Positions 9,572-61,511 of a stretch of DNA of 64,000 bases are shown here, one piece after another. A program made the position numbers and the translations under genes. Position 1 is the first letter of the stretch. Every line of letters starts with the position of its first letter. Below the pieces are notes generated by a model. It saw only the letters and a list, made by a program, of their open reading frames with translations. It ran no database searches and was not told the DNA's origin. This DNA is from Antedon mediterranea. Taxonomy: Eukaryota > Animalia > Echinodermata. Where the stretch lies: positions 642,101 through 706,100 of the forward strand of contig NC_092677.1 in the NCBI RefSeq assembly GCF_964355755.1. Reading direction: 5' to 3'.

Positions 9572-9572
9572 T

Positions 9573-12112
9573 ACAAATTCAATAATGTTACAGTAATTTT
9601 AAATTGTATGATAACTTGAAATGTTATTGTAACTTTACATTTTTTTAATAATTGTCTTTTTATGAAATGTATTTTTGTAACTGTAATTGTATTATCGAGG
9701 ACCCCAATGATCATCTTTTGGTGAACGGGCTACCCTCATTAAAAATGAATAAAAAACGTACGATTCATTACTTAACCTCTCAAGGTGTAGTTATTTGTTC
9801 GTGTCTATATTTATAAGGCATTTGAATTAGCATGAGATACTTGAGTTATTGTTGCTGTTGCATTTGCCTACTGATAGGTGACAGTATTTGGATTACAATA
9901 TATAAAATACTTCCTTGATAGGGATGGACTTAATATTTTGTGTAAATGACGACTAAATGGGTGCAAACTTTGTGTACGGTGCAAGAGTATTTGTAATAAA
10001 CGTTCGGTAAACAATTCTGTGCAGTCGTAAAGAGCGGTTCATTTGTCACTTCCGGCATCGATAGGTCTAAATTAAATTTGTTATTTTATGGCAATGAAAC
10101 AATTATGAGTTGGGAGAGGAGTTAAGTTTTGTCAACGAAATATACTAGACGGCCGCCGGATCATCAAACATAAGGTATGTCATTACTATAGAACTTCGCC
10201 CGAGAGCTGGTATCCCAAACTCTCATTTTGATATTCCATTACTGATAAAACCTCTATACCATACTCTCTCGATCCCGGTGGAAATGTAGTTTATAAACTT
10301 TCCAGTACAATTCTAGCAATGTTGATACCGGCCTTCCCCAATGGATACATTTTCCCTCCTCTCTCTGCTGATATACATTAGCTGTTTCCTTTATAGGGAT
10401 GGACTTATTTTGTGCAAATGACGACCAAATTAGTGCGAACTTTGTGTACGGTCTAAAGTATTTTGTTTTTAAACTTACGTTTTAAAATTCTTTATAGTAC
10501 TAAAGAACGGTTTATTGCCGCTTCCGGCATCGACAAACATACATGTAAATTTATGAAAGAATTATGAATTGGACCCGGGACTTTCCCCACTAAATTCTTA
10601 ATTGTGTCTAGTCACGTGTAGTGGCATGATAATACAATCCTGTACTACCTATTGAAATGGGGTTGTAATGTGGTTAAAACACTGTATTTGTTGGACAATG
10701 AAATGTATTAGGTAAATTATCTAAACATCGTTAAACATTCTTTCCATTTACGATAGGTAGCCTACACGAGTAATTGAATTGTGGATAATGTTATCAAAGA
10801 AGGATATTTATTTGCATCTTTTTCTTTTATGCTGTAAGTAATCTAATATGGTTCTATTTGTGCTTTGTTTTTTTTTTTATTTTGTAAAATTACAAAGTTA
10901 TTATAATACTGGAATACTTCTTCATTTTCTACATTGTTTTCTGCCTTTGATATTTTATTCGGACCCCAATGGAAACTAATTCTTTTTCTTAGGATTAATT
11001 GGGTTGTCCTGAATTCATCATCAAATGTTTCTCCTTTGTTTTCTCTCTTATGTTTTTTCATTTGACTGTTTTTATGTATGATATTTTTGATGTTTGGATT
11101 AAAAAAAAAACAAACAATATCATTCTGTACAGTAGTATAAAACACTTAAAAGTAAAAACAATCCCATTATTGTTTGATCATGTTCTATTACTTTTTTGTT
11201 TAACAAATTCAGTCTTACGAAAATATGTTGCTGTAACAGTGACTGTTGATGACATAGATGTAGCTGAAGGATCTGAAGCAAGAATAACATGTAACATTGT
11301 ACCAGCTAGCAGTGGAGCTGTTCCTGTTGTAACATGGTATAATGTTACCAATGGGGCAAATGATTTAATAGCAGCTTATCAAGGTGGATTTGGAACAATA
11401 GAACCAGGTTACATTGACAGATTTAGTGTTGAAAATGACATTACTCTTGTAATTACCAACACTCTCAGAATTGACAGTGGAACATATCAATGTAGTGTCA
11501 ATTTAGTTGGAGATAGTCCATCAGTTGATGATGATATATGCACACTGACTGTAAATTGTGAGTACAGTAACTCCTTAATTAGGTGTGGTACATAACTTGA
11601 GTCTTATAATTCTCATAAATTGAAATGCTGTTTGTCAATAGGATAGGACGGTCAAAGGTTTAAAGAGGAATCCTAGTTTAAAATTTCTCTTATCGTTCCA
11701 GTCCTTAACAGTGTATTAAGTGAAGACAAAAAAGGATAGGCCTATGTTGATAGAAGATTAAACAATATTGCTTTTACTCAATAACTTACTGTTTTCTTTA
11801 AATTTTACCAAATATAGCCTAATAATATGAATTATCCTTAAATTTTATAGATTTAGATAAACCCGAAATGAACTTTTTGACACTTGTAACTGAAGGAGAT
11901 GAAGTTGTCATGACCTGTGTTGTGGATTCGAGTCCAGAAGCTATGTGCAACTTTATAAAAGATGGTGACGTACTACCACATGATGGTTCATGTACGTTTA
12001 CAATTCCATCAGCCAGTCGTGCTGATGATGGAAGTTATGAGTGCGAGGCGGATAATGGTGTTGGTAACAAACAAAAAAGTGACAATAGAAACCTAGAGGT
12101 ACAATGTAAGTA
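9573..12112 (+). repeat. Segmental duplicate of 14602-17130 (tandem gene-duplication unit of ~5.03 kb)
   Basis: Near-identical sequence at an offset of ~5020-5029, covering 3' UTR, promoter, signal, V and Ig2 exons. Similarity stops just after the Ig2 splice donor. Confidence 0.92.
10577..10586 (+). promoter_or_regulatory. Canonical NF-kB site GGGACTTTCC upstream of the receptor-1 signal exon
   Basis: Exact kB consensus about 200 bp before the ATG. Its function is not shown. Confidence 0.5.
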
Positions 12113-14447
12113 GTTTGTGATGATTTGATGTTAAGGTAAAATGATGATCAGATCTAAGTTTATAATTCTAAAATACACTAAAATGGGCCGCCATGTGTGC
12201 TAATTAATGTAGGATTGCAAATGCCAATAAATAGATATCTACAATGTAGGCCTACACGTTTAAAAGAATGGTGACATGACATAATTGTCACGTGGTGATT
12301 AAAATACATCAACAATCCGTTAATCGCAGTAGCGAGTGGGACGCGGAAAAATGTTTATTTACCAAGACCAAATCTTATATAGGCGACATGGGTTACGTTA
12401 CGGTTTAAACAAGGTTTAAACAAATTATTAATGTTATAGGTTTAAAACTGAACAATTAAACACACGACTTTTGGTTTTCAGATAAACCTGATAAGGATAT
12501 TGCAAATGATCAGACTGTTCCTCCTGGTGAGACTTTTACAATAACATCTACTGTAACAGCTAATCCTTCTGACGTCACTTATTTGTGGACTACTGATCTT
12601 CCTGGGAATGAAGATTCTGTCAACTATCGACCAACATTTACACTGAAAGTATCGGAAACAGAGGTTGATGGCACTATTTATTTAGTAAATATAACAGTTA
12701 CAAACATCATTGGATCAACAACGGATTCAGCTAATATCACAATATCTGGTAAGATTTTAAATGAAATGATATCCATGAGAAATATTTTAGCTTTATCTAC
12801 TGGATACAACTGTGAATACCAGTGATTCTGAGATTGATCTAAATGTTATCTGCTAGCTTCATTTTTGGTATTAGGTGTTAACTTCATCAATTCATTTTTG
12901 TAAAATATTAAAGCAAACGATGGATGGACTGGAATTGCATTTAACATGAGCAAGATTTATACAATAGTAGTTTAACTATAGATTGTTCATTAAAATACAA
13001 TTAAGTAGTTGATGTATCGATTTGTTAACTATAAGTAATAATTATTTTAATTGCATAGCAAGTATTACTAATAATTGAGGTAATTTATACTGTACAAACG
13101 ACTTAAACATAAAAACAGTCGTTTAGGAGTATGGAAATGTATACTACTGTATTATGCTATGGATGTATTAGTTCCTTCAACTTAGTTCATTTAAATTTTT
13201 CCTAAAACTATTTCAGTAATTATGACTGTTGTTATGAGTTCTTTATTTAATTATAAATGTCATTTCATATTAATGTTTGTGTTAAGGTACAGAGTAACAA
13301 TTTATATTTTCCATGATCAACTGCAATGCAATTAAAAAAAAACACCCAGTTTTTAATTAGAATATAAAAATCACCATATTAAGCACAAGTAAGATAACCA
13401 TTATGAGATCATGCCACTGATGCGCTGAGCTAGCAGGCCTATTACAAACTTGTTTCATTTAGTTGATGAGCGTTTGCGTGTTTTCGGTTAAAAAGAGCAT
13501 TAAGTCAACAGTTTCAGTCAAAACCACGTCTATACCAATTACAAGTAAGCGTCGTTTAAATAATGAATTTGTGTTTTAGATATTCAGTACTGGAGTTTCA
13601 TACAAACGACATTGGCTCATATTCTAAAATATCAGATTTTACTACAATTTAATTTCAATATCAATATACACCCGTTATGTTTACATATTGAAATAAACAA
13701 ATCATATAAAATACATTGATAGATTAGGACTGTAATATGCTAACAAAAAACATTTTCCTTCAGAGACAACAGCCGAGTCATGTAATGATACTACGGGTCT
13801 GACCATCGGGATGTTCTTTGTTGGCATCATACTTGGTGTCTTAGGATTTTACATTGCAGAAATTACTCACAACAAGATAAAGAAGGTTGGTAAAATGCAG
13901 TATGAATATTATACTTATATAACCATTATAATTTTCGAACTATTCATGCTGACAGTGGCAAAAATAATTCAATTGATGGACTACATTCTACTAAAATAAA
14001 TTTCCAACATTATTGCACAAAATATAATTGAAAAACATACAGTAGTGTATACAGAGTAATAATAACTTTATATTAATCTAATAGAAGGCACTGTCAAAGG
14101 AACAAGACGCAGACAAAAGGAAACAAGATGTAAGTATCGATACAATCTATAAAGAGGACAAACCAACGACTGGTAATCCGATTGAAAATATTATGATTGT
14201 GCATACTATATTTTAGTTACTTTTAGTACGATTACCACAAGTTATTGTATTGTGACTTTATTGCTTATTTACTACATTGTATAATAGTTTCTTATGTTAG
14301 CAATCCTTTGCTTTTTAACAGACTTACATGGATTATGGAGGAGACACTGGCGAGCAAAACCAAACCTATCAAGATTTACAACATAAAGTAGAAGAGTCAG
14401 CTTATGTTAATGTTAAGGCTGGGAATAAGCAAAAGGGAAAAGTATGA
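10788..14447 (+). CDS. Ig-superfamily type I membrane receptor 1 (SP, IgV, IgI/C2, PKD-like, TM, tyrosine-motif tail), 401 aa
   Basis: Seven coding exons with GT-AG sites and consistent phases: 10788-10833, 11213-11557, 11851-12105, 12482-12748, 13764-13885, 14085-14129, 14322-14447 (1206 nt, open). N-terminus MLSKKDIYLHLFLLCFLRKYVA. V-set ITC..W..RFS..TLVI..DSGTYQC. TM GLTIGMFFVGIILGVLGFYIA. Tail TYMDY..TYQDLQHKVEESAYVNV. Confidence 0.9.
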
Positions 14448-15810: not shown

Positions 15811-18800
15811 ATGTTATCAAAGCAGGATATTTATTTGCATCTCTTTCTTTTATGCTGTAAGTAATCGAATATGGTTCTATTTGTGCTTTGTTTTTTTGTT
15901 ATTTTGTAACATTACAAAGTTATTATAATACTGGAATACTTCTTCATTTTCTACGTTGTTTTCTTCCTTTGTTATTTTATTCGGACCCCAATGGAAACTA
16001 ATTCTTTTTCTTAGGATTAATTTGGTTGTCCTGAATTCATCATCAAATGTTTCTCCTTTGTTTTCTCTTTGATGTTTTTTCATTTGACTGTTTTTATGTA
16101 TGATATTTTTGATGTTTGGATTCTAAATAAAAACAAACAATATCATTCTGTACAGTAGTATAAAACACTTAAAAGTAAAAACAATCCCATTATTGTTTGA
16201 TCATGTTCTATTACATTTTTGTTTAACACAATTCAGTCTTACGAAAATATGTTGCTGTAACAGTGACTGTTGATGACGTAGATGTAGCTGAAGGATCTGA
16301 AGCAAGAATAACATGTAACATTGTACCAGCTAGCAGTGGAGCTGTTCCTGTTGTAACATGGTATAATGTTACCAATGCGGCAAATGATTTAATAGCCAAT
16401 TATCAGGGTGGATTTGGATTAGTAGAACCTGGATACAGTGAGAGATTTAGTGTTGAAAATGACATTACTCTTGTAATTACCAACACTCACAGAAGTGACA
16501 GTGGAACATATCAATGTAGTGCAAATTTAGTTGGAGATAGTCCATCAGTTGATGATGATATATGCACTCTGACTGTAAATTGTGAGTACAGTAACTCCTT
16601 AATTAGGTGTGGTACATAACTTGAGTCTCATAATTCTCATAAATTGAAATGCTGTTTGTCAATAGGATAGGACGGTCAAAGGTTTAAAGAGGAATCCTAG
16701 TTTAAAATGTCTCTTATCGTTCCAGTCCTTAACAGTGTATTAAGTGAAGACAAAAAAGGATATGTTGATAGAAGATTAAACAATATTGTTTTTACTCATT
16801 AACTTACTGTATTCTTTAAATTTTACCAAATATTGCCTAATAATATAAAATATTCTTAAAATTTATAGATTTAGATAAACCCGAAATTAAGTTTTTGACA
16901 CTTGTAACTGAAGGAGATGAAGTTGTCATAACCTGTGTTGTGGATTCTAGCCCAGAAGCTATGTGCAACTTTATAAATGATGGTGACGTACTACCACATG
17001 ATGGTTCATGTACGTTTACAATTCCATCAGTGAGTCGTACTGATGGAGGCAGTTATGAGTGCGAGGCAGATAATGGTGTTGGTAACAAACAGAAAAGTGA
17101 CAATAGAAACCTAGAAGTACAATGTAAGTAAACTTTTGGTTTATTTCAAGTAGATCACAGATATCTGATCTTTCAAAAAACGATTATATTACTTTAAAAA
17201 CATTATACCAGGTCATTCCGTGTCTTAAATGTACGTTTTATGGTAAATGAGAGAAACAATGCATTACTGTACCTAAAGTAGTTCACTGTGAAAGTCCTCT
17301 CGTGGACGGTCTTAGGCTTAGTTTTATAGGTCTAGCTGGTAAACAGCATTAACATTGTACGCTAGCTATGCCTAGCCTGACGTCTACAGTAGTTGCTGCA
17401 TTAATTGTCTTTCTGTTTTTGCCAGAATCCATTATTACAAATTAAGGAAAACCTGATATTTTCGCTAAAAAGTTACGATTTTTTCTTTTGTTTTGGCAAA
17501 AAAAAAAAAAAATTAAAAAAATATCAATCAGCGCGCAGTGCATGTTGGGATTTATAGCGGACCAACATATTTTTTACCATTTAAAGAGAAAAAAAGTTAT
17601 CGCAATAGGAACATGTAGTATTTATTTTTACATTAAATGTAGTTGGTGACCTTAAATTAGATCTAAAAATGTAAGGAATGGGACTTTAACATGAATTATT
17701 CCATGGTAACTCGCTTTTTATGGGTAGTTAAATTAGTGTATGTGTTGTTACCTTGAGGATAAATAAAATGTTGAAAAGTGTATGAACTATAGTCAAGAAA
17801 AACAAGGCCAACAGCCATTAAGTCGCGTGCTACAATGCATAGTGATACCGGACAGACAGACCGACAGACAGACCGACAGACAGACAGACAGACCGACCGA
17901 CCGACCGACATAGTGAACTATACTGACCAAAATTACTGAGCATGTTTAAAAATGTTGAAATGTTTAAAAACATTTATATTTTTTTAATTTACACGTGCGT
18001 AGCCTGTCACTTTCGACGTGCTCGTATAACGTAATTTCGAGTTGAAAAGTAAGTCAAGAAAACAGAAATCGGGCAAAAAGAATGCGCAATAACATTTAAC
18101 GCGCAGTGCGCGCGCAAAAATATGCGCACTCATGGCAATTTTGTAAACGCTTAAAATTGCCTGAAATGTACTCTTATTTCATCGAAAATAAATTTTGAAA
18201 ATTTTAAGCGCGCGTACGCATGCGTTACATGCGCTACGCACGTAATTGTATTGCCATATGATGATTTATGCCCTGAAATTTATTAGTACCAAATTTTATT
18301 TAATTGTGATTCATGGTTGTTAAGATATGATTACAAACGTGATTTCGTTAAATCGTGCGTAGACCGCGTAATTTTTTATTGCGCACCGTGAAAACATAAC
18401 CACATCGATTCCTGACCATAAGGAATATTCTGTGAAAAATTGACTTAGTTAGATTAAACTGATATCAAGATAAGGTCAGAAAGCGATAAAACGCATAGTG
18501 ATACCGGACCGACAGACAGACCGACAGACAGACAGACAGACAGACCGACCAACCGACCGACATAGTGAACTATAGAGTCGCTTCCACGCGACTAAAAACC
18601 AAAAATAATCATTTGTGTAGGACATGACCAAAAAAAAAAACGAAATTGAAATTCTCCTCATACCAGTAAGCTATTGTTGAAAAGTTATTAACCTACAAAA
18701 TGGTATGTAACGTCAAGAATACTTTGAAATAATGTTATAAATGTCCATTATTAAATTTTAAATGGTATAAATTTTGGTAACTTACATGTCCAGGATATAT

Positions 18801-19684
18801 GAATGTCTATAGAAACAATTTGTTCACAAGATTAATTACTGTAAACTTTCTTAAATATCAACTAAAAATGCAGTATTGTACTTTAGAAAACTAAAGTCTT
18901 TCACTTGTAGCCCAACAAATAAATTTATGAAAACTTTAGGCCTATGCTTAAGTAACTCGCCTTACATAAATTAGTGCTGTTGAAATCACGTTGCTATTTT
19001 TTTCATATTTTCAGAAAAAGAAATTACAATAATTATTTTTGTTCATAGAAGTATAACTTATATGTTATGCAGGAAAGGTATAGAATTTATAATTACTGAG
19101 AATGAGATTTTCAGGTCATGTCCATTTCTCATGGAAATGCCCATTAGAATAACTGTGTCTAAAGTTGTAGGTATTTGAGCTGTACTGAAAAAAAAACATA
19201 TTTACAAGATAAGATAATGTCATGAAGAATCAACTGAAGTCTTGTAATATTTCTGAAAACAATTATGTTCGTTTCATTGGTTGAAATCCATATTTACATA
19301 CCGACCACCCCATTAAGCTAGTTAATATGGTATGATAAGCTATGTCATTGTTCTGATATTTGTGGTACATTTTTTATAAATAATAAATTGTATTTCACTG
19401 TTTTTCAGTTAAACCTGTTGCTAATGATGATAATGATATAAATGATCAGATTGTTTTCCCTGGTGAAACTGTTACAATGACATTCAGTGGAATAGCGAAT
19501 CCCCCAGACATCACTTATCTGTGGACTACTGATGTTCCTGGAAACGAAGATGCTGTCAACAATGGATCATCATTTACAGTAAAAGTGTCGGAATCAGAAG
19601 TTGATGGTGCTTTTTATTTTGTTAATTTGACAGTTACAAACAGCATTGGATCAACAACTTATTCAGCCAAAATCACAATATCTG
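15811..19684 (+). CDS. Ig receptor 2, 5' half (SP, IgV, Ig2, PKD-like); its own TM and tail exons are missing
   Basis: Exons 15811-15856, 16237-16581, 16869-17123 and 19409-19684, all open with phase-1 junctions. Downstream intron similarity to gene 1 ends at ~32493, before the expected TM exon. Confidence 0.82.
17801..18598. mobile_element. Non-autonomous Helentron/DINE-1-like element (GACA family), copy 1
   Basis: Starts AACAAGGCC..AGTCGCGTG, carries (GACA/GACC)n tracts, ends in the hairpin AGTCGCTTCCACGCGACT followed by an A-run. Near-identical copies at 41152 and 43936. Confidence 0.75.
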
Positions 19685-42990: not shown

Positions 42991-43935
42991 GTAATGGAGG
43001 CAACCTAGTGTTATACATAATGTATATGTTGTCCGAAATCTTTGCTAATTTTTCTGGATGTTTTACTTTATCGTTTTGATTTACCTTTTTGCTTATTTTA
43101 TTTTGTTTCTCAATTGAGATCCAGCAACTGATACCCACAGCATTTTTACTATTTTTAGTTATTTGCCTTAGGAATTATATATACATATAAATAATATAAA
43201 CACTGTCTAATTATTGAAACAGTGCTCATATTTGGAACATGATCTCATAACCACGTCGAGCATAGCTCCTCGGCAAAAGTTCCGTATTTTGTAAGTTGTA
43301 TGAAAAAATGTCTCTGGCGGGATTAGAATCATATATACATTCTTTTTCACTTACATACACAAATGCTGATGAGAAAAACCAAAACTACAACAATCACTAC
43401 ACTAATTGTCCATATTGGTGTAGTCTCTGTAATAAAAAAATAATTATCACTGATTATCAACGAATCCACTTAGCCCAACCCCTGTCCGGTCTACGCTGTC
43501 CAAAATCCTAAGTATGGGTGTAAAATACATTCAAGAGGTCCAGATAGTTTGAAGCATATTGGCGATATTATCTCTATGATTATTTATTAGGAAACATGCA
43601 ATTAGAAAAAAAGTTATTTCAAGAACAATTTAGTGTTTGGAGGTTGTGGGTATAGCTCCCTGATGCAAGTTACTTCGTTTATTATAATCATCATTGTAAT
43701 AATTGTGATAAGTTATAATGAATTTTGGAATCAGATGCACTGATGCATGTTTGGTTGAAAATTAAAAGCTGCAATGATTGTTGTTCTTGTTTTAACTTCT
43801 GTTGGAGTGTTGGTACTACTACTGTGACTTCACCCTGGCCAGTACGGCTATCAAGTATGTAAGAATGTAGATGTTGGCAACAACTTGGCAACAAGCTTGC
43901 AAATGCAAAGTTTGAAAATGTAGTGATACAATATA

Positions 43936-44738
43936 AAACAAGGCCAACAGCCATTAAGTCGCGTGCTACAATGCATAGTGATACCGGACCGACAGAATAA
44001 CCGACAGACCGACAGACAGACGGACCGACCGACATAGTGAACTATACTGACCGAAATTACTGAACATGTTTAAAAATGTTGAAATGTTTAAAAACATTTA
44101 TTTTTTTAAAATTTACACGTGCGTAGCCTGTCACTTTCGACGTGCTCGTATAACATAATTTCGAGTTGAAAAGTAAGTCAAGAAAACAGAAATCGGGCAA
44201 AAAGAGTGCGCAATAACATTTAACGCGCAGTGCGCGCGCAAAAATATGCGCACTCATGGCAATTTTGTAAACGCTTAAAATTGCCTGAAATGTACTCTTA
44301 TTTCATCGAAAATAAATTTTGAAAATGTTAAGCGCGCGTACGCATGCGCTACATGCGCTATGCACGTAATTGTATTGCCATATGATGATTTATGCCCTGA
44401 AATTTATGAGTACCAAATTTTATTTAATTGTGATTCATGGTTGTGAAGATATGATTACAAACGTGATTTCGTTAAATCGTGCGTAGACCGCGTAATTTTT
44501 TATTGCGCACCGTGAAAACATAACCACATCGATTCCTGGCCATAAGGAATATTCTGTGAAAAATTGACTTAGCTAGATTAAACTGATATCAAGATAAGGT
44601 CATAAAGCGATAAAACGCATAGTGATACCGGACCGACAGACAGACAGACAGACAGACCGACAGACAGACCGACAGACAGACAGACAGACCGACCGACCGA
44701 CATAGTGAACTATAGAGTCGCTTCCACGCGATTAAAAA
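43936..44738. mobile_element. Helentron/DINE-1-like GACA-family element, copy 3
   Basis: Near-identical to 17801-18598. Confidence 0.75.
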
Positions 44739-44779
44739 TAAATAAATAAAAATAAATAAATGTTGAATTGAAATTATCT

Positions 44780-46720
44780 ACCTTCTGGGCACAACGTTTT
44801 TGAGAAAGTTACAAAAACTGGATGATTTTATAACTAACTTCCAAGAAATTCCCTATTATATTTATCTACATAAGCAGTTCTTAAGTTCAAAGCTAAAGTC
44901 ATGTCTAGGTACTTGCATGTTTGAACCATCAGGGCCATGGTCACCAGTAGACCTATGGTTGGTATGTTTTCAATCTGATGACCACTTTTTTGTCAGAAGC
45001 TTGAAGGAAATAAAGATACAGCTCATTCACAAGCTCCATGAGCAGCATTAACTCCCACATCTCATCTTCTATAGTCTGTACAAATTTCATTTGAGGTACC
45101 CCCTAAGATGGAACATTATACACTGGTTTGATGAGTGCACAGGGTCGTGGTATAACAACTCAGAGAAAGGCAAAATAATTCCCAGTGATGACTCTTGACC
45201 AAGATGAGTAGGAGGTGGACAGAGATGATTTATTTCGACCCGGTGAGCTGTATGTCTTTTGGACATGCATTATTGGGAATATAGTGTTGAGGCCAGTGGA
45301 ATTAAGATTTGGTTGAAGCTGAACTTGTATTTCCTACAAAAGCGACACAAATATCTTAAATGGAAAAAATCTCTACAGGACGTCACAGAAGCCCATATAC
45401 TAACTCTGCTTTCTATCTCTGGCATCCTTTCTAGAAAAAAAATGATTGAAATGATGAGAAAGAGATTACAAGTGACGTATCGTTTTGTTGGAAAGACACT
45501 TATCATTATGAACTTGAATAAAGAGCTGAGTCAACGAAATTAAAATGCTGTCAATAAAAGTTAAACTATATCCCTTTTATGTCTGAGCCACAGGGACAAC
45601 GAAATCTGTTGTGGCACATACAAAGTACACAGGCTTTTATGACCACCTGAACTACGCCCGGTTACTTCTGATTTATCTTTCAACAATGCAGACCACAGCA
45701 CATTCCAGATATTGGACAGAGTTTATAAGAGGAAATTATGTGTGACAAAGGGACTTGCTGGATCTGTCACGGAATTGAACAAGAAGATCGTAAAGGTCAT
45801 TGGGTGTGGTGTCATTGGAGTAACACAATTACACAAATTAATGATTTCATCAGAGCTGACAAATCTAGTTGATGTGTTTGAAAGTCAACAATTAAAGAGA
45901 GATGACACAAGGAAAGGCATCCCGAATAATAAGGAATGGAATGTTGCATTTGTAGGTGTTACTTGACTATGAGATCCATTCAATTCAGTAATGATTGTAA
46001 TGAACTTTATATTCTTGCAAAGAAATAATGAATGAAAAGGTAATAAAGGATATAATAAAGCATGATGACATTGTACAGAAAATGTTTGAGGCATTGAAGA
46101 ATTGGCTAACTGTTTATATGGGATCCAATGAAAAGGAAGACATTCAAATACATGACGGTGAAAACAGGTGACAAACTTATAAAAGTGAAAGAGGACTCCT
46201 ATTTTAGCGATTCTTTGTCACATACGTAGTCCGACCGGACATATGTGTAAGAGTTTAGCGTTATTCATGTGCACTTTTTACTTTTAACTTTTTACTTCTT
46301 CTGGTATATGACAAAGATATCATCAGAAGCATACTGTAATTCCTAAAGAGCAATACATTTCAATAGATGAAACAATACAACTAGGACTTAACATCAGATC
46401 AGTACACAATTAATATTATTATAAATGGTTAGATGGTAGTAAACTCAATATATAAAACATATGAAATGAGGTATTGCAGTGCTTTTGCTTTGTTTCTAAA
46501 CAAGTTGTTGAGATCGCAGATCGGTTCTGTTGTAGTACGATGGATACAATTAGTTCTGGAAGTCAGTTGTCATTCAACTGAAGAAGTTTATGAAATGTTT
46601 TGATATGAAGAAATATACTGTACTGTAGGCTTCCTGATAGTCACACTATGTCACATACTTTTTAAAAATAAATTTAATCCATTAAAAAAAATGGCAGCCA
46701 TTTTGAAATTCAAATTTGCT
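44780..46720 (+). mobile_element. Heavily decayed DNA-transposon coding remnant (possibly Academ-type)
   Basis: Broken reading frames with fragments such as KVIGCGVIGVTQ, MTVKTGDKLIKVKEDS, SRPD and CHSTEE. The family call is tentative recall only. Confidence 0.3.
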
Positions 46721-48385
46721 GTTGTTGTTGTCATAGGCCTCATTTTATGTGATTTCAATCAATGTTATTTAAGGTACACACGTTTTAATAAGAAATGTAA
46801 CATTTCTTTTTTAAATTGGTCCATTTTGAAGTTTAAAATGGCAGATTACTACTTTTGAATGTTTATATAGCAGAAAACCCATAAGCCTTAATTTTAACTT
46901 AAAATATTATTCATAATGGGGTGTTAATTTGTCCTATATGTTACATTTATTGGACATTTTGCATATTGACGGCCAAATCTTGGATTTTACACCCTTATGC
47001 TTTTTTTAGAAAAATGGTAACATATTTTACACTCTAAAGGGTTAGGGCCTACATTAATATACTAAATATAAATTTACTTTCTAATGGTTAAATCACAGTA
47101 GGAGCAAGACGGCCTTAATTTCATATACATGTATTTTTCTGCGTTTTACCGGGAGTTTTCCATAAATGTAAGACCAAATCATAATTTTGTTTAGTTTTTT
47201 ATTTCCATATAGTAGGCCTACCCTATCCCTATTTACAGATATTCCGAACTTTTTTTGCTTTTTTCTGCAAATTAACGTTTTGCTCAATATTTATAGAAGA
47301 CGTTTCATTTTTTTTCTAACTTTTGTTATTAATTTGCATTCGATCGTATTGCTGTTTGCTAGCGGACTAGAGTACTATTTTCGGTGTCATTCAGCAAAAT
47401 TCGCTTAACAAAACATACTATCAACGACCCTTGATTACTGGGCAACCCTATTAAAATAGTCCTGCGACTGCCCCTGATACAGACAATTCAAAATATATAG
47501 TGATTATTAAGCATACAATTTTTTTTCACTACCGGTATTAAAAGAAAGTTTTTGTCAATCGGTATACTGTTAGCTTAAAACAAATGATAAAATTATCAAA
47601 ATAAAACTTATTTTATGCCTATACTATTACTATAAATATTATATTTTCAAATGACAAAACTGAGTTATATATATTTTGTCCATATGCAATTAAATCATTA
47701 AAATAAATTGCTACTATGCACAAAATGTAGGCCATAATCAGTTTTGACCTCACACTAGTCTGGTCTCTTATGGTGTGGACATTCCTTAACAATGGAGAGA
47801 ATCATGCTGGTGTAGAATTTTCCATGTAAAAATATTGCCTGGAAACTAGTGTGTGGAGACACACTAATTGTTAGATCTAACATAAATGGTTAAATTCCAT
47901 TAAGCATGGGGGTTTAAAACGTGCCTCAATCACGTCTTAATTGGTCACAATACAATAATTAACAATCAGGTATTCTGTAATCACGTGACTGATTCACTGC
48001 ACTATTTAGAGTCCATAGTTATGGAGGTGTCCACTATTTAAAATTAACACTCAAATAGCGTACATTTCTACGGTAAACTCATGAATATCAGCGCTTTACA
48101 TAATTGTCATAACATTGGATGAAATAAAAATGATATAAAAACTATATTATAGGTCCTTTTGCCATCCTGCGTAAGCAAAATACATTCCAATTTGGCAAAA
48201 GGATATTTGTGTCAACAAATTGGATCCCTAATCGTTAGCGACTCGCTGGCATGAACCTACAATGTAAATCATCATTAGTAGATACCATTTAGATCATGCT
48301 AACAATGAAATGATTCACAGTTCAACCCAGCAGATGATTAATCTAAAATATTTCCTATGGATGTTGTGGCAAATCAAAATCTTAC

Positions 48386-49969
48386 CATGTATTTTAATTT
48401 TAGCTGAATACGTTGTTGATCCAATGATGTTAGTAACTGTCACATTAACAGTGCCAGATTCCGATACTTTCAGTGTAAATGTTGATCCATTGTTGACAGC
48501 ATCTTCATTTCCAGGAAGATCAGTAGACCACAGATAATTGACGTCAGGAGGATTAGTTGATACAGTTACAGATGTTATTGTATAAGTCTCACCAGGAGAA
48601 ACAATAAGATCATTTAATTTAAATTCAGGCGTATCTAAAATAGAAAATAAAAGTTGTTGATTATTTATATATAATTAATTTGTACCTAAATGTAGGTAAA
48701 TTATTGTTGGAAAAGTATAAAACCTTATTATTTTGTCCGGCCATGATTACATCCCGGAACGTTACTTAAACTATTTTTGTGTAAAACCCAAATGCAAACA
48801 TTAATGAATCCAATTACATGAATATTATTCCAAAAACATAAAATTATCATTGTATACTTACATTGTACCTCTAGGTTTCTAGAATCACTTTTCTGTTTGT
48901 TACCAGCACCATTATCCGCCTCGCACTCATAACTTCCATCATCAGTACGACTTACTGATGGAATTGTAAACAAACACGAACCATTGTGTGGTACGTCATC
49001 ATCTTTTATAAAGTTGAACATAGCTTCTGTACTAGAATCCACAACACATGTCATGAAAACTCCATCTCCTTCAGTTACAGGTGTCGTAAAGTTAATTACA
49101 GGTTTATCTAAATCTATAACATTTAAGAATAATCTATATTATTGTTGTCGTCGTTGTCGTCGTAACAATTTTAGAAATTAGTAGCACAAGCAATGTTGTT
49201 TAATATTTTATCAACATAATAAAATAACTTCATACAATTTTGAATAAATCCAGATGATTTTGAGTGCATTCACTTTGTAAAACCAGGCACTCACACCAGT
49301 TAATTTAGTTAATTCTTAATCTTAGTTTTATCTTTAAAAATCTCTCTCTTTTTATAATATTTTTAGTGGTAATGTTACAGTATACTCATACACATGACGT
49401 AAAAACAAAATGATTTACTTACAGTGAACAGTTAGTGTGCATATATCATCATCAGCTGATGGAATGTCTCCAACTAAAGTGACATCACATTGGTATGTGC
49501 CACTGTCACTTCTGAGAGTGTTGGTAATTACAAGAGTGATGTCATTTTCAACACTAAATTTGTCACTGTATCCAGGTTCTATTACACCAAATCCATTCTG
49601 ATAAATTGCTATTGTATCCGTTACACCATTGGTAACATTACTCCATCTAACAGTAGGAACAGCTCCACTGCTAGCTGGTACAATGTTACATGTTATTCTT
49701 GCTTCAGATCCTTCAGCTGCATCTACGTCATCAACTGTCACTGTTACTGCAACACATATTATGTCTAACCAAACTATATTAAAAACCATGAATAACGTCA
49801 TACTTTGCATCATATTTAAGACAGAAAAATTATATTTCAATTATTATATCTACTCTCAAATTGTTAGGTACTGTATTGCCAAAACTAACTTGAATTAAAG
49901 ACTAATATAGGTACAGTAAACCTTACCTGTGATACCAATGATGATATAGAAAATATCTTTTAATGTCAT
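48386..49969 (-). CDS. Ig receptor 4 (SP, IgV, Ig2, PKD-like), inverted; no family-type TM or tail exon found
   Basis: Exons 49927-49969 (MTLKDIFYIIIGIT), 49423-49764, 48862-49113 and 48386-48634, all open, with GT-AG sites and phase-1 junctions. Confidence 0.8.
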
Positions 49970-53293: not shown

Positions 53294-56200
53294 ATGATGC
53301 TATCAAGGCAGGATATTTATTTGCATATCTTTCTTTTAAGCTGTAAGTATAATTGAATAGGTTCCATTTTATTTCGTACTACTAGCCTACTCAATGTATT
53401 ATCTGGTAGTTTAAAACATAATTCTAATCAACAATGCTATAAGAACGACACAAAGATTCCATCACCATTTCATGCTTTATGCTTTTATAACCAAACTGAG
53501 TCAATTAATTCAGCTAAATGTTTAATTATCACCTAAAACTACGTAGATCTTTATAATTCTGTACATAGTAAATTTTATTGGAATTTTATATCGTCTTTAT
53601 TTATCAGTAAATTAAAAACCAAACCCACACATCATATTCCTTTTGGGAGGGTGAATATGTATATTAATTAAGTAAATTCTCTTTTATTTGATTTTATCTT
53701 GATATTTTTCATATTAATTAAATAAGTTTTCAGTTTATTATAATAGTCAAATACTACCTTACTTAATGTTTATTATAGGCCTATAAAAAATTGTATTTTG
53801 TATCCGTTCTGTATTTGCATGTTATCCCTCCTAATATTATTGTTATTATATTGGTAAATTAATGTTGCTGTTGGTTTAGGTTTTGAAATAAAACAAATAC
53901 ATAAATAAAAACATTTTCTTGTGGACCATATCACATTCTTAAAGTAAAAAAAACATTAATAGTTGAACCATTACATTTTTGTTTAACACAATTCAGCCTT
54001 ACGAAAATGTTCCGCAGTAACAGTGACTGTTGATGACGTAGATGTAGCTGAAGGATCTGAAGCAAGAATAACATGTAACATTGTACCAGCTAGCAGTGGA
54101 GCTGATCCTACTGTTAGATGGAGTAATGTTACCAATGGTGTAACGGATACAATAGCAACTTATCAGGGTGGATTTGGTGTAATAGAACCTGGATACAGTG
54201 ACAGATTTAGTGTTGAAAATGACATCACTCTTGTAATTGATAACACTCTCAGAAGTGACAGTGGCACATATGAATGTAGTGTCACTTTAGTTGGAGATAT
54301 TCCTGCAGATGATAATGATATATGCACCCTGACTGTTCACTGTAAGTAAATCGTTTTATTAGTACATGTGTATGCATACTGTAACATAACTAAATTACAA
54401 ACTGGGGTGGTTTGAAAAGTAAAAGGATACTCTCTTAATGTAAACGAGTGATATTTCCACTCCAAATTTAGAGTGAAATGATGTTCACTCTTGAATGAGT
54501 GTTAATCCACTCCAATTTGAGCGACTGCCATAATTATTAAGCATAAAACGTACCACTCCTTCAACGAGTGTGCATGTATTCCCGCTCGAACTGTAAACAC
54601 CCACCACTTGACTCCGGGAGTGAAAACTTTTGATCGAGTCAGCCAATCAAATGCAAGCATTTCATAACTTTTCATCGTCTTCGCCCGCGCCCAGGCCGGC
54701 CGATTGACTGTTTCTCTCTCTTTCTCCCGCCGCCGCATTCCAACGAGATGGAGGAATTTTTACACCAGATATTTGGTGAACAAGATCAACATTTAATCAG
54801 GATATTTAATGGTAAATTTACATTTAAAATGTAGCTTTTGTTACCGTGTATTGTAGAAATGATTATATTGTTTTGTAATATGTTTTATTTGCGTGTGAAT
54901 CCTGGTGTGCTAACGCCTAGCCTACTACTACTAGCTAGCCTAGCTAGGCCTAGTAGGAAGGGTGCTGGCAACGCGTACCCAAACCAACTCGTCCCCACCA
55001 TATGCTAACTCGTATCTAGCCTATAGGCGGACCCATACCCAAATTGTTTTGGCATGGGTACGGTACGACGAGTTGACCTGTCTTTATTGTTTTCACTTTA
55101 TTCAACCACTCTTTATTAATTATTATAGACCCGGCTAGGCTACACACATGATATTTACAAATTTCACTTATTATTAAAATAAAACGGTTTTTTTTGTGGC
55201 CGTAACGAACAATGCGCATAGGCCTAGGCCGGATGGCCCTCTGCTGCGGCCTTATTATTTACTAGGCCCAGGCCCTCCTAGGAGCCTGTTGTAGACCTAG
55301 CCTATTCTAGTAGGCCTAGGCCTAGGCCTATGCCTAGCTAGGCCTAGGCTAGGTAGCTAGGATACTAGGCCTATATTCTGAGAAATTTATGAGTAAAATT
55401 GTACTAATTTACTCATTCAACTTTACTTTGATTCTGTGAATCATTTCTCATAGGATATAAAATAAATATTTAACAAAATAAATTTCAGAAAATTTTAGGT
55501 TGATTAGCCTAGGCCCCTACAGTAGTAATATTTTCAATGTTTCAGATTAACTTGGAATTTGAACTGATGTATTCAGGATGCGGATTCAAAATGTTAATCA
55601 AATGGAAGCCATATTACCATCCCAAGTTTGTGCAGATGCATAAATCAAAACTCAGTAAGTTTATAAAGAGTGTTAATTCTTACCTGTTTTATTTAATAAC
55701 TTATTTACACTAATAGGAAGATGTTTTTCCCAACTCTGACGTAATGTGTACCGAATATTCAATACATTTGAAAACAATTGCGAAAAAATATGCAAGTTCT
55801 TGGGTGGAAATCCACAGCCTCCAGATCATCAGGCCTCTAGACCACCGAGCTTGCGCTGATGGCTGGGGTTGAATTCGAGCCCAAGTAAGCAGCAGGAACT
55901 GTACCAACGATGATAATTGTTGTTAATTGCGTAACAACAAAGTTTTTGCGTCAGGGAATACACTCTTCCCTGTTTATACATCGATATAAAACATTACATT
56001 GTAAAGTGTATTGATTGATTAAAACAAGCACGAATGTGCAATACTCGGGGTACAGCGAAAGAAGCTGTATACAGACGTATACAGTTAGAAAGTTAAAGAA
56101 AAATAGGTTTCGCCAGGGCTCGAACCGGGACCTTCTGCGTGTTAAGCAGACTTGACAACCACTACACTACGAAACCTCTTACATTGAAATTGTGGGTTAC

Positions 56201-59200
56201 AGAAAGTTTTTTAATCCATTTAAATTACAAATAAATGGTAATAAGCACAAAGCAAAATAAACATGTGTAAAAGTGATAATTACCGATTACACAAAATAAG
56301 TATTTTAAAAAATAATAATAAGATATACTGTGTATAATTATCATATTGCGTATACAGTACTTTTCACCATAAAGTTTAAAAAAAAAGGTTTAGCCCGGGC
56401 TCGAACCAGGTACCTTCTGCGTATTGAGCAAACGTGATAACCACTACGCCAAGAAGCCGCATATAACCATATAACTACATAACTCTGTGGTGTGTGTCAC
56501 ACATTGTGGATTCTTAATTAAACAAATTAATTAACAAAAAATTAAAAATCCGGCTCTATAGCTTTGAGGACATGTCCCTGTAGTATGTTCATGCCAAATC
56601 CCAGCTCAATACTACAACTAATAAGGGAGGAGTAGTACTTTAAAAATCGCACTTTTTACTCAATAGTGTCCAGATGGTGGAGGAGAAAATGAGTAAGTAC
56701 TAGACTCGGGTACCCCGAGTAAAAATATACAATAACCTTAGTAAATTTTAAATAAAAAGATGGTTTACAAAATGCTAAAAACAGAAACAAGCAATTACTG
56801 TAACTTTAAGTGCATTTACTGTTTTTGCAGATGATCTGGATGTGTTCAGAACAATTACCATCAATATCAAGAGGTGGGAAAAGCAAAGTCTACGATGCTT
56901 TTCATTACATTTTACAACACAAGCCAGTGAGTACTTGTTAAACGTTTTTATAATTCCATCATTAAATTGCAATAGATCTATACAAAATTTGTGTTTCATT
57001 CTTTGTAAAATACTCTTAGTATATGCAAATATTATATCTCAAAATTGAAACACAGTATGTGATTATACATTAAATGAGCCCCAATAAAATTTCATCTTCT
57101 CCTTTACTTCTCACAAGATTACTGTTGTATAAAATACCCTTTTCACAGCAGCATAATTTTGTATCTGGAGATCAAACCTGGTTAAAAACGATTTATTTTC
57201 TGCATACGTGGAAATGTGGAAGTTAAATAAGAAAAGAAGGAAGGCAACTGGGAAATGCCTTTAGCTCACACATTTTGTAAACTTGTAATGTGCAGTATAC
57301 CAAATTGAAATTTAAACCATCTGATCAAAAACAAGCGTGCATTGTTGATCAGTATATTGACAAGGTGATTAAAGATACAAAATTGTAGTGTTTATTATGT
57401 GATAAATAATAGACTAAAGTACGGAGGATTTGTGATAAATTTATATTTTTCAGCTTTTTATACTGTATTTTTATATTTTTCAGGCTGGGACAGATGTTGA
57501 CAGCTTTGCATCAGGAAAAGACCAGACTTATGCACAGCCATTTATCCTTGCATTGGGTGATGTTAAAGAACCTACAGAGTTTTTTTTATTATTGTTGATG
57601 CATTCCTGGTAGTAGCGCAATTTTTAAAATTCATTATAATTATATTTAATGTCCATTTGCCAGTCCGCTTGTGACCTTTTTCAATTTCTTTGAAGGTCTC
57701 TTATACGAAATTACAACAAACATCAAACCAACTGTTAGGGAGTTATATTCCCATCTTATTCGCGATGATGAGTAACTGTGATGAAATGTTTTTGATGAAT
57801 TAAATTACCTCTTAATTATGCATTATGTATAGAGAAGAGATTTGCTTTTCAAAATAAACAAATTAATATAGCTCAATGTCGGTTTCATTTATTTGGTTGT
57901 GCACAATTGTGTTTTAAATGCATGTTTTTAAGGCTACTACCAAGTTTGGGATCTCAGAAGCAGCCTTGCAGACAGAAGATACAAGTAGAACAAGAATATG
58001 CTAAAAATACCACTCCTAAAAAAGAGTGGTTTCCTTTCACTCTTTTATGAGTTGATTATTTTCACTCTTTTTGAAAGAGTGGGTCACTTTCACTCTTTTA
58101 TGAGTGTATTATTTCCACTCTTGTTTAAAGAGTGATGAAAATGTTCACTCTTTTTAGAGTTGGTTTCACTCACTTTAGAGTGATTTGGTGACCACTCTTT
58201 TTTTCACTCCAAAACGAGTTGTCCCTCAGTTAACTCTTTGAAAGAGTGGAAGTTCACTCTAGTTTGAGTGGTTTCTCACTCTTTTACATTAAGAGAGACA
58301 ACACGTTTATACTCCACTGAAATTCATCTGGATTCTTTCCTACCCCTGGAAAACGAAGAAGACGAAGAAGAAAAAGCAGACGACGACGACAACAACAATA
58401 ATATAGATTATTTCTTAAATGTTATAGATTTAGATAAACCTGTAATTATCTTTACGACACTTGTAACTGAAGGAGATAAAGTCGTCATGACCTGTGTTGT
58501 GGATTCTAGTCCAGAAGCTATGTGCAACTTTATAAAAGATGATGACGTACTACCACACATTGGTTCGTGTACATTTACAATTCCATCAGTAAGTCGTACT
58601 GATGATGGACGTTATGAGTGCGAGGCGGATAATGGTGTTGGTAACAAACAGAAAAGTGACAATAGAAACCTAGATGTACTATGTACGTATACAATGATAA
58701 TTTCATGTTTTTGGAATAATATTCATTTAGTTGGAGATTCATTAATGTTTGCATTTGGGATGTTCCGGGATGTAATCATGGCCGGACAAAATATAGGTTT
58801 TATACTTTTCCAACAATAATTTACCTACATTTAGGTATAAAAAATTAAGTATATAAAATCAACAACTTTTTTTTTTTTTCTATTTTAGATAAGCCTGAGG
58901 TTAATTTAAATGATCAGATTGTTTCTCCTGGTGAGACTTTTACAATAACATCTACTGTAACAGCTAATCCTTCTGATGTCACTTATCTATGGACTACTGA
59001 TCTTCCTGGAAATGAAGATGTAGTCAAGAATGGACCAACATTTACATTGAAAGTATCGGAATTAGAAGTTGATGGCACTGTTTATTTGGTTAATGTGACA
59101 ATTATGAACATCATTGGAACAACAACGGATTCAGCTAAACTTACAATATCTGGTAAGAATTTAAGTGAAATTAAAACTTTGAGGAATATGTTCGATTTAT

Positions 59201-61511
59201 TATCTACTGGATATAACTCTGAACTGTAATTATGATTTTGTACTATAACTCTCTAAGTTGTGATACCATACTATTTTATAGAATACATATCTATAATATA
59301 ATCTTAATTAATTTCCTGAAACGTAATTTTTTTACAATAGTAATAAAGCATGATATGAGTAATGAAATCTGATTGATGGACTTGTTATTGCAGGTACATA
59401 ATAGTGATTAACTTGTGATTTTTCTAAAACATAATTATAAATAAATTGTTAAGCATGTGATTGTCACGATTTGTTGCCCACATTTGGGTTGAAAACATAA
59501 TAGTACTATTATAGAATCATTATCCGTCGATCTAATGATTGTGCTAATTTATACCGTACTGTAATAACTATACAAAAGCAGTTATTCAGGAATCTGAAAA
59601 GTTTTAATTAATTAATTAATGATTAATGACATTGATCAAGATTATCTTTTAATTATCTAATATTTAATTATTTATTTTTCACTACTTTTATAATGAGTTC
59701 ATTATTTAATATTGAATAATACATTATGTCCATATTAATTCATGTCTTAAAATACAGAATAACAATTTATTTTTCTATGATTTATTGCCATGAAAAAAAA
59801 CCCCCAAAACTATTAAAAAGAATAATTAGGTTTTTAAGGAATACAAAAATCACAATACCGGTAAGCATTGTTAAATCAATTGCCACTGATTCTCTGAGTA
59901 TGTCTTCTTCACTTATCCGTTTAGATAATGTACATTTGCTTGTTTTGGCTGTATTTTTCAGTTACAAGCAGCATTAGATCAACGGTTTCAACAAATACCA
60001 CAATACTAATTACAGGTAAGCTTCGTTAATTATTTCAATTGAATTCATGTATGATACCAACCTTTCTTGTTAAAATCAAAACCCGAAGGAATTTATTTCC
60101 TTATTATTAAATTAGTATTCAAATCATTTAAAATGTCAAACTTTTTTAGTCTGAAGGACCCTGTTCCCGATATGTTCTAGTACTCTAGGCGTTGATTACA
60201 GTTCTGATGATGAGAAATGTATTCTCGAAACATGTCACGATTACGAGTTTTATTTTAATTAGGCCTATATAACATACTTACATGAGTTTTATCATACAAA
60301 TGGCAATGTGCTTACAACGACCAATTTCACAATATTGTACCAGATTTCGATAAACTGTAGGCCTACTTTGAAATTAATTTAAATATAACAAATGTTCTAT
60401 ACTATTTTTTTTTGTATTTTACTACTACATTTGATATTGAATTAACAAATGACCGAATTGATATATGCTAAAATAAATTAGTGAGATGTATGTATCACTT
60501 TTAGAGTCATGCAACAGTATTGGTCTGACCATTGGAATACTCTTTTTTGGCATCTTTATTGGTATCGTAGGATTGTATATTGGACAAATTATTCACAAAA
60601 AGATAAGGAAGGTTTGTTAATTGTTATGAAAACTTTACTTTAGTATTTTTATAATGCTACAAAACATGCAAACTTGTGACAATAATCGAAGACTCTCATG
60701 TGATACAAAGTAATATAATGGTAATGATTTCTAGTCAAATCTTTTGAAATAATTTACATGATGACATGATGGTTATTGTTGGTTTTCGATGAACACAATT
60801 TCTTTTCGAGGGAAAACGTATTCTATGATTTGCATCATTTTCCTTTAAAATATATTGAAATAAATAGAAAAATGAAAGGCATAGAGGATGACTACAGTAA
60901 TAACATAGTCCCCTAATTATTTCCATTTAGAAGTCGATGTCAAAGAAACAAAACGCAGACAAAAGGAAAGAAGATGTAAGTATTGATCTGTGAAATACAA
61001 TCTAAAGATGACAGACAAAACGATTCAAATAACATGATATATCACACTCATTGTTTAAAGAATAAACTAAATTAAAATGAGTGATTTAGTCTAATTTGAC
61101 TCCCGACTAAACGTACTGTTAAACTCTCTGGACCAAATAATTGTATTATTAAAAGATTTAATTGGTAGAACCATTGGAAAGAAAATTATTTTTTCTCATT
61201 AACGGCAAAATGGAAAATTCAAACTTAAATAGACCGGGTCTAATTTGATTCCGATTAAATGTAAGTCTACGTTTACAATTCCAATTTATTGTATTAAGAG
61301 TTTAGTACAATTCCTTTATTTGCCACAAGAAAAAATGGTTTCTGATTTAAGTTAACAATTATTTTCTTATTTACAGACTTACATGGATTATGTAGTAGAC
61401 CCTAGCCAGCAAAATCAAACCTATCAAGATTTACAATGCAGGCCTAACGAACAAGAATCGGCTTATGTTAATGTTAAGGCTGGAAATAAGAAAAAGAAAG
61501 CGAAAATATGA
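53294..61511 (+). CDS. Ig-superfamily receptor 5 (SP, IgV, Ig2, PKD-like, TM, tyrosine-motif tail), 399 aa
   Basis: Exons 53294-53342, 53997-54341, 58428-58682, 58889-59152, 60505-60611, 60931-60975 and 61377-61511 (1200 nt, open). Tail TYMDY..TYQDLQCRPNEQESAYVNV. Confidence 0.88.
56106..56176 (-). tRNA. tRNA-Val(AAC)-like sequence, probably a pseudogene carried in a repeat
   Basis: Reverse complement GGTTTCGTAGTGTAGTGGTTGTCAAGTCTGCTTAACACGCAGAAGGTCCCGGTTCGAGCCCTGGCGAAACC. Acceptor and anticodon stems pair; D and T stems have mismatches. Confidence 0.6.
56387..56458 (-). pseudogene. Second, more degenerate tRNA-Val-like copy
   Basis: Similar to 56106-56176, with broken stems. Confidence 0.55.
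60204..60236 (+). ncRNA. Minimal hammerhead-ribozyme-like motif (Penelope pLTR type), probably degenerate
   Basis: CTGATGA-T-GAGAA/ATGTA/TTCTC-GAAA-CATG-TC. Stem I pairing is poor. Confidence 0.4.

Follow-up and report, generated by a model that had tools for sequence, protein, structure and literature searches.

Organization of the locus

We analyzed a window of 64,000 nucleotides from the crinoid Antedon mediterranea (contig NC_092677.1 of assembly GCF_964355755.1, positions 642,101 to 706,100 of the forward strand). The window is AT-rich animal DNA and carries a cluster of genes encoding putative type I receptors: a leader, a V-set immunoglobulin (Ig) domain, a second Ig domain (Ig2), a PKD-like domain devoid of cysteines, a transmembrane (TM) segment, and a tail that often carries tyrosine motifs. 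We argue below that these genes belong to a crinoid-specific family that probably works as paired immunoreceptors.

Exon models were required to have GT/AG borders and compatible phases, and resulted in five gene segments, A to E (Table 1). An earlier note on this DNA had described at least five paralogs sharing one exon plan. The tandem exon sets are present, with such borders and phases, but the complete plan is found in only two of the five segments, A and E. A, C, and E each have the 15-amino-acid exon and the tyrosine exon. The names given by RefSeq to these genes (CEACAM6-like, MAG-like, ROBO2-like, and uncharacterized) are best-hit labels, not orthology. Proteins retrieved by our profile and sequence searches bear labels of the type P0001: P0003 is XP_071958605.1, P0002 is XP_071958023.1, and P0020 is XP_071959155.1.

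Table 1. Coordinates of the gene segments and of the associated features in the window
Feature	Position	Strand	Parts and remarks
LINE fragments	1..9571	-	reverse transcriptase and endonuclease open reading frames, partly tandem-duplicated; truncate left end of duplicated flank
Duplicated block	9569..10787	+	98.8% to 14598-15810
Gene A	10788..14447	+	leader 10788-10833, V 11213-11557, Ig2 11851-12105, Cys-less PKD-like 12482-12748, TM 13764-13885, 15-amino-acid exon 14085-14129, tyrosine exon 14322-14447
A degenerate Ser/Thr stalk exon	13488..13544	+	acceptor AG reads GG
Gene B, 5' part	15811..19684	+	leader 15811-15856, V 16237-16581, Ig2 16869-17123, PKD-like 19409-19684
B stalk exon, intact	32260..32316	+	within A-like intron-4 sequence (25557-25844, 32236-32494)
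Repeat element at B/C junction	32505..33157		second direct copy 37576-38209, just past C
Segment C	33324..37387	+	V 3' remnant 33324-33397, Ig 34121-34390 and 34736-35002, PKD-like 35263-35520, TM 36035-36144, 36491-36535, tyrosine exon 37259-37387
Gene D (XP_071958212.1), inverted	42194..49969	-	leader 49969-49927, V 49773-49423, Ig2 49113-48862, PKD-like 48634-48386, unrelated TM exon 43426-43355, tail 42342-42194
Gene E (417 amino acids, XP_071958104.1)	53294..61511	+	leader 53294-53342, V 53997-54341, Ig2 58428-58682, PKD-like 58889-59152, stalk 59962-60015, TM 60505-60611, 60931-60975, tyrosine exon 61377-61511

Four public sequencing runs were aligned to positions 9400-20000. Two of them revealed splicing: X8, which is labelled as another organism, and X9, which bears the label of the same species and whose labelling as RNA is a guess. 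Contigs of X8 join 12747-13763 (PKD-TM), 13883-14083 (TM to the 15-amino-acid exon), 15856-16237 (leader-V), and 17123-19409 (Ig2-PKD) at GT..AG borders. The leader-V joint 15856-16237 was also found in X9, together with one contig containing parts of V and Ig2.

The 401-amino-acid model of gene A corresponds to P0003 in RefSeq, with a V exon that is 100% identical and a match for every A exon. A first model of 392 amino acids, using a downstream acceptor, was discarded since the acceptor at 11213/16237 is the one seen both in the contigs and in RefSeq. The stalk exon of A is likely skipped in splicing, because of its degenerate acceptor and because the PKD-TM joint of X8 passes over its position. 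The duplicated block upstream of A is composite. Its first ~270 nucleotides (nt) copy the sequence 150-420 nt past the stop codon of A, i.e., an A-type 3' flank or untranslated region (UTR), and from ~9836 on it is homologous to the upstream flank of E; on the left, the block is bounded by a long interspersed nuclear element (LINE). The 3' region of A itself is covered by an X8 contig (14388-14706). A sixth gene had been supposed from the orphan 3' UTR at 9573. The copy of an A-type 3' flank is present, and a sixth copy does exist, since P0026, on the same chromosome, is A-like and 96% identical to A but headless. This makes the sixth gene plausible; it may lie just upstream.

Some observations on DNA reads concern the same block. 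An unbroken 1,401-nt contig of the DNA run X1 covers 14602-16004 at a depth of 85, with 6 substitutions and 2 gaps; the two copies in the window differ at ~20 places. Together with a word share of 0.69-0.72, this is a weak hint, from one sample, that S1 has one sequence type over the block upstream of B, through haplotype variation or a duplicated haplotype in the assembly. The depth of X1 is 3.9 and 1.3 in the bins 9754-10107 and 10462-10815, relative to 88-95 at 14710-15771, but missing cover proves nothing and was not used as evidence.

Segments B and C are likely to form one fused gene. B has a leader, V, Ig2, and PKD exons, followed 12.6 kb downstream by an intact stalk exon, and lacks a TM exon: the A-like intron-4 sequence around its stalk ends just before the expected position of that exon. 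C lacks a leader, and of its V exon just 74 nt at the 3' end remain. Its two Ig exons are of another subtype (27-39% identical to the Ig2 of A, B, D, and E) and its PKD exon is divergent. All exons of B and C join in frame into 685 amino acids with no internal stops, and RefSeq P0002 (400 amino acids) splices the leader and V of B to the exons of C. Given what B and C each lack, and the RefSeq join, the window likely has four transcription units (A, B+C, D, and E). The simplest reading is that a deletion fused the 5' half of B to the 3' half of C. Direct copies (79%) of one repeat element flank C and may mark the deletion or insertion behind the fusion.

Gene D has a leader that differs from those of A, B, and E; its TM exon is unrelated, and its tail shows no activation or inhibition motif pattern. 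A search with tblastn found no tail of the P0006 type in the window. An intron of D contains coding-looking open frames of 98-110 amino acids (44767-46200), possibly a transposon or a nested gene fragment; those at 44767-45966 had no Pfam match.

Domains and predicted fold

The order V, Ig2, and cysteine-less PKD-like domain, proposed from the sequence, agrees with the Pfam searches. Domain 1 is a V-set (E 2.5e-11 and 3.6e-11) and domain 2 is an Ig_2 (E 2e-11) that keeps its cysteine pair. Domain 3 has weak PKD and Ig_3 scores, with E-values (2e-4 to 4e-3) that fall short of the Pfam cut-off, and no Fn3 match in Pfam. The AlphaFold (AF2) model of A, built from an alignment of 35 rows, has a mean predicted local distance difference test score (pLDDT) of 81.5 and shows three domains with an Ig-type beta-sandwich fold, a single TM helix, and a tail that is disordered. 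Its best fold matches are the three-Ig ectodomains of CEACAM6, nectin, DIP, and IgLON, and V domains such as that of amphioxus VCBP3 (104 residues aligned, Z 16.2, root-mean-square deviation 1.9), all with at most 26% identity. The closest look-alikes in the Atlas are the HEPACAM2, CEACAM, and ALCAM clusters, and sequence searches of the PDB gave generic Ig matches only.

Checked by homology and with AlphaFold and Foldseek, the 401-amino-acid protein has a RefSeq identity and three Ig-fold domains, and fits neither CEACAM, FcoR, nor the conserved adhesion families. The N-terminal V-like domain of CEACAM, a vertebrate family, lacks the intra-domain disulfide. Membership in CEACAM was rejected because C42 and C109 are present in the V domain of P0003, and because the Foldseek likeness to CEACAM6 (22-24% identity) is common to many three-Ig proteins. 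Membership in the FcoR family of Botryllus was rejected because there is no sushi domain, either in the Pfam scans of seven full proteins or in the model of A. Finally, the genes do not fit a conserved adhesion family (nectin/CADM, JAM, IgLON, or DIP), in which genes are single- or low-copy with orthologs across phyla: they are multi-copy, and every sourced match of our word-based searches is crinoid.

A crinoid-specific family shaped by exon exchange

To what extent is this family restricted to crinoids? Searching with a profile built from the four V exons, we retrieved 17 proteins, each of them from Antedon mediterranea or Anneissia japonica, and the 12 matches of a second search were also all crinoid (29 of 29 rows over both searches). 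Searches with full-length proteins and tails added P0026, P0027, P0028, and P0030. A PKD-TM-tail profile run over 1.84 billion representatives gave 218 matches at E <= 0.001. Among the matches listed (the best 150 of the 218), the 20 traced to their source were all crinoid (9 Antedon, 11 Anneissia); these 20 are the ones matching the TM, the tail, or the family ectodomain, with eight short matches (P0041, P0050, P0051, P0061, P0064, P0084, P0150, and P0151) left out of the tracing. Long PKD-repeat proteins among the 218 (e.g., P0032) match domain 3 only and were set aside. No non-crinoid ortholog was found among the sourced homologs, with the caveat that distant orthologs can escape a word-based search.

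The chromosome of the window (28,587,047 nt) has at least 17 RefSeq loci of the family, four of which are within the window. Two V-Ig-PKD relatives on another chromosome (P0007/P0021 and P0017) have RefSeq models that lack a TM; the proteins may be secreted, or the models truncated.

The exons of these genes have different histories. The leaders group A, B, and E against D and P0020, and the V domains group A, B, and P0020 against D and E. D and E are 93% identical in V and 63% in the leader and adjacent intron. V identity among the window genes and P0020 ranges from 79 to 92%. The divergence between A and B is 1.2% upstream, ~3% in the introns, and 5-6% in the V and Ig2 exons, and 11 of the 18 differences in their V exons fall within 46 nt (p 1e-4). 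When strands were assigned with DSSP on the model of A, the variable V residues of the four window genes were found on the front strands C, C', C'', F, and G (16/42) and not on the back strands (0/19; Fisher p 0.001). The addition of P0020 leads to 1/19 on the back strands (p 0.012).

These results show a crinoid-specific family of Ig receptors reshuffled by duplication and exon exchange, for which an immune role is suggested by sequence. They are in line with the birth-and-death, lineage-specific evolution put forward in the earlier note: D is inverted, leaders and V domains form mosaics, loci are numerous on the chromosome, and all sourced homologs are crinoid. Neither of the two findings that the earlier note named as refuting it arose: no conserved adhesion gene emerged as a one-to-one ortholog, and family members do have spliced contigs.

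Tyrosine tails

We used the definitions of the immunoreceptor tyrosine-based motifs of activation (ITAM) and inhibition (ITIM) applied to Hydractinia Alr (10.1101/2022.03.04.482883). The tail of A has YMDY and YQDL-x8-YVNV, that of C has YQDL-x8-YVNV, and that of E has YQDL-x10-YVNV. Across 41 family proteins with a TM or a tail, we found 26 tails with YxxL/I-x6..13-YxN, three with an ITIM and an immunoreceptor tyrosine-based switch motif (ITSM) (P0020, P0030, and P0049), and 12 with neither; this set includes one extra isoform and P0001, an apparently mis-joined model, and the profile favours the YxxL/I..YxN type. A strict ITAM is present in three of the 41 (P0026, P0035, and P0117). The 26 YxxL/I..YxN tails sit on V-Ig-PKD, V-Ig-Ig, EGF-containing, and Fn3 ectodomains. 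Their ITIM -2 position is I, L, V, or S in 12 of 26, the +3 position is I or L in 2 of 26, most end in V, and their spacing is 6-13. N is found at +2 in 26/26, which is partly circular since the motif defined the set. We judged SAYVNV to be weak as a conserved ITIM, since the -2 position is kept in only 12 of the 26 tails.

YxN is the Grb2-binding consensus. The tails of the window are predicted to be ITAM-like, or to combine a hemITAM with a Grb2-type YxN site, and on this reading of YQDL/YVNV they would be activating or co-stimulatory. Homologs of Syk, HTK16, and Grb2 are expressed in sea star eggs (PMC11593052).

The tyrosine cassette is tandemly repeated in some relatives from Anneissia or of unassigned source (P0033, P0041, P0117, and P0112), four times in P0033 and twice in P0041. 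Anneissia P0013 has a mosaic tail, with a segment like the P0020 tail (z 7.3) ahead of a YQDL..YVNA exon, which shows shuffling of tail exons. Antedon P0098, encoded on another chromosome, carries a tyrosine tail on an Fn3 ectodomain.

Inhibitory-type relatives with near-identical ectodomains

P0020, which has three isoforms in RefSeq, carries a tail with an ITIM (LQYADL) and an ITSM (TTYASI). Its ectodomain is very close to that of B (92.4% identity in V, 95.2% in Ig2, and 92.3% in PKD) and 81% identical to that of A. P0030 has the same type of tail on a C-type ectodomain and groups with C. In Anneissia, P0049 (six isoforms) has the motifs LTYADL and TEYSSI; over 213 amino acids it shares 83.6% identity with P0035, a carrier of a strict ITAM, compared with just 37% with P0020. 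The pairing of an ITIM+ITSM member with a partner thus recurs three times in two genera. The named candidate pairs are B or A vs XP_071959155, and XP_033099033 vs XP_033122504.

The tails tell another story. Those of P0020 and P0049 are homologous across genera (z 10.9, 0/500 shuffles), and the ITIM+ITSM tails are unrelated to the YQDL tail (z -1.1 and 0.9). In the PKD tree (27 rows), each of the three inhibitory-type domains is sister to its same-species partner, with supports of 99/97, 98/93, and 98/92, and a single inhibitory clade is rejected (approximately unbiased test, p-AU 1.9e-5). The V tree (21 rows, 2 inhibitory, one partial row omitted) also rejects it (p-AU 3.4e-8). In other words, each of the two tail types is conserved between Antedon and Anneissia, while the ectodomains group by species and not by tail. 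Such a pattern likely reflects paired receptors.

The inhibitory-type members of Antedon have a further peculiarity. In P0030, an I-set domain (residues 192-287, E 3e-7) follows the TM (122-140), and in P0020 an Ig domain with a Cys/Trp core (residues ~378-478) lies past the sole TM and ahead of the ITIM and ITSM. Given their position after the only TM segment, these domains are predicted to be cytoplasmic, a call based for P0020 on Pfam and an Atlas model. The domain is absent from Anneissia P0049. One Atlas structure match, which did not reach the threshold for naming, was a NACHT+V-set cluster of echinoderms.

Interpretation and alternative explanations

We favor the view, with some confidence, that this crinoid-specific family of type I V-Ig-PKD-like proteins works as paired immunoreceptors. 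A, B-C, and E would be the activating or co-stimulatory forms, and the relatives with near-identical ectodomains on the same chromosome the inhibitory ones. The V domain would bind a microbial or self surface ligand via its GFCC'C'' face, and Src-family kinases would phosphorylate the tails. YQDL-x8-YVNV could then recruit a Syk/Shark-type kinase and Grb2, and the tail with LxYADL and TxYxxI could recruit SHP-type phosphatases. The likeness of the ectodomains within each pair is probably maintained by gene conversion or exon swapping, so that the activating copy could answer ligands, e.g., pathogen mimics, that engage the inhibitory one. Such ITIM+ITSM partners strengthen the immune-receptor analogy made in the earlier note.

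Several observations weigh against this view. None of the three tails of A, C, and E has a strict ITAM, as their last residue, V, fails the pattern, and their SAYVNV fits a loose ITIM pattern, which makes the activating sign uncertain. The earlier description of the tails as ITAM/ITIM-like is therefore fair for A, C, and E if taken as likeness, and does not apply to the motif-free tail of D. The TM segments of the 17 TM-bearing proteins scanned have no charged residue for an adaptor. The ectodomain closest to P0020 is that of B, which would have a tail only through fusion to C. The inhibitory-type members are outside the window and are RefSeq model predictions. The spliced contigs resemble the window at ~88-93% where a value is given, and so represent alleles or paralogs; they demonstrate splicing on this plan for members of the family, and not expression of each gene of the window. 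Finally, we tested for positive selection and did not find it: the ratio of nonsynonymous to synonymous rates (dN/dS) of the V exons is 0.50-0.59 in all 6 pairs. On the front face, pN/pS is 0.43-0.69 with pS raised as well, so that the variation there fits patchy conversion as well as selection. Patchy conversion accounts for the V variation without positive selection.

Could these genes instead form a lineage-specific family for adhesion or cell contact (neural wiring, regeneration, gamete or tissue contact), with tyrosine tails that tune adhesion signalling and no immune role? The three-Ig fold is also typical of adhesion molecules, the nearest folds and Atlas look-alikes listed above are of this kind, and the V dN/dS is below 1. 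However, the rapid, species-specific exchange of ectodomains between opposite-looking tails is not expected of conserved adhesion genes, and the sourced homologs include no ortholog outside crinoids. We consider this explanation unlikely, although it is the best of the alternatives.

It is less probable still that the receptors are of immune type but unpaired, with YQDL/YVNV tails that are adaptor-like or inhibitory and a likeness to the ITIM+ITSM genes that is a by-product of conversion between neighbours. The fit of SAYVNV to the ITIM consensus, the final V in place of L or I in most tails with their variable spacing, and the synonymous sites that vary together with the nonsynonymous ones are consistent with it. 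Yet the ITIM -2 position is kept in fewer than half of the tails while the +2 N is kept (a count that is partly circular), three members have a strict ITAM, and the pairing is recurrent in two genera.

Feather stars are solitary and have no colony fusion, which counts against an allorecognition locus. Allorecognition was part of the earlier proposal; a locus of this kind, with allele-specific homophilic binding like Hydractinia Alr or Botryllus fester/FcoR, is just as improbable: the clustered V-set receptors, ITAM-/ITIM-type tails, and exon shuffling recall Alr and FcoR (10.1101/2022.03.04.482883, PMC12065747) and the single sequence type upstream of B is a weak haplotype hint, but the paralogs are alike in V with dN/dS below 1, and domain 3 scores weakly as PKD-like, with neither an Fn3 nor a sushi match in the Pfam scans.

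The paired-immunoreceptor view may be taken further, more tentatively. Crinoids may have independently evolved a full paired system, with ~25 YxxL..YxN-tailed and at least 3 ITIM+ITSM members over two genomes. Its tail cassettes would predate the split of Antedon and Anneissia and would have been repeatedly re-fitted with V-Ig-PKD, V-Ig-Ig, EGF, or Fn3 ectodomains, the inhibitory forms of Antedon would have added a cytoplasmic Ig, and gene content would vary between individuals. Old tails with newly matched ectodomains are described for CD300A/C (PMC12447643) and for FcR/KIR-like families (PMC2413239).

Repeats in the window

The window also contains several repeats. Positions 1-2416 and 2828-5243 are 99.9% identical tandem LINE fragments, which were either duplicated very recently or repeated in the assembly. 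A high-copy interspersed element of ~800 nt with GACA/GACC tetranucleotide ends is found at 17799-18608, 41152-41942, 43935-44749, and 21691-22222, and is extremely deep in every run aligned. A 149-nt inverted repeat (27583-27731 and 28407-28554, 93%) encloses ~680 nt. There is a 26-nt tandem array at 31040-31229 and a 105-nt tandem array at 61695-62324, right after gene E.

Comparison with known receptors and implications

Vertebrate paired Ig receptors include SIRP and CEACAM1/CEACAM3. Like CD300A/CD300C and Xenopus XFL (FcR/KIR-like), the crinoid family has clustered paralogs, inhibitory-type (ITIM/ITSM) and putative activating forms, and within-species homogenization of ectodomains, with activating copies subject to birth and death (PMC12447643, PMC2413239). 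Unlike vertebrate paired receptors, to which it has no sequence orthology, it lacks a charged TM residue for an ITAM adaptor in the proteins scanned, carries a non-canonical activating-type motif in its own tail, has a cysteine-less PKD-like third domain, and has a cytoplasmic Ig, as predicted, in two inhibitory-type members of Antedon. Hydractinia Alr, another invertebrate family, also consists of clustered type I receptors of the V-set, with duplication, shuffled exons, and tails that bear ITAM or ITIM motifs (10.1101/2022.03.04.482883). However, Alr has I-set domains and an Fn3-like region, extreme allelic polymorphism, and allele-specific homophilic binding, whereas the crinoid proteins have a domain 3 with weak PKD scores and a cysteine pair in domain 2. 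Botryllus FcoR shares with them multigene IgV receptors in an invertebrate deuterostome, with ITIM or hemITAM/core tyrosine tails, and FcoR gene content is variable (PMC12065747). It differs in its sushi and two C2 domains and in its pairing with fester-family genes, neither of which was seen in the crinoid family. In the oyster, the ITAM-bearing Ig receptor CgIgIT2 reportedly binds microbes and signals in haemocytes; it has five Ig domains, the accessible part of its description presents no paired inhibitory partner, and we found no homology to the crinoid family (PMC11999971). Among vertebrates, paired Ig receptors with ITIM/ITAM logic are established, and recent work has described them in Botryllus and Hydractinia. 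In the portion of the open-access literature covered, we found no published description of this crinoid receptor family; the supplements of genome papers, outside this scope, may list the genes.

Echinoderm immunity is known mainly through expanded families of pattern-recognition receptors. A review of sea cucumber immunity terms crinoids largely understudied and, in its accessible part, makes no mention of ITAM or ITIM (PMC13673367). If true, the system suggested here would be the first echinoderm case described of a balance between activating and inhibitory receptors, with decoy or missing-self logic. A cytoplasmic Ig domain beside ITIM and ITSM motifs would be unusual, and the named receptor pairs provide material for asking whether pathogens drive pairing. 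A paired version of its own in a solitary echinoderm would demonstrate that such a design is a recurrent one, which does not need colonial allorecognition.

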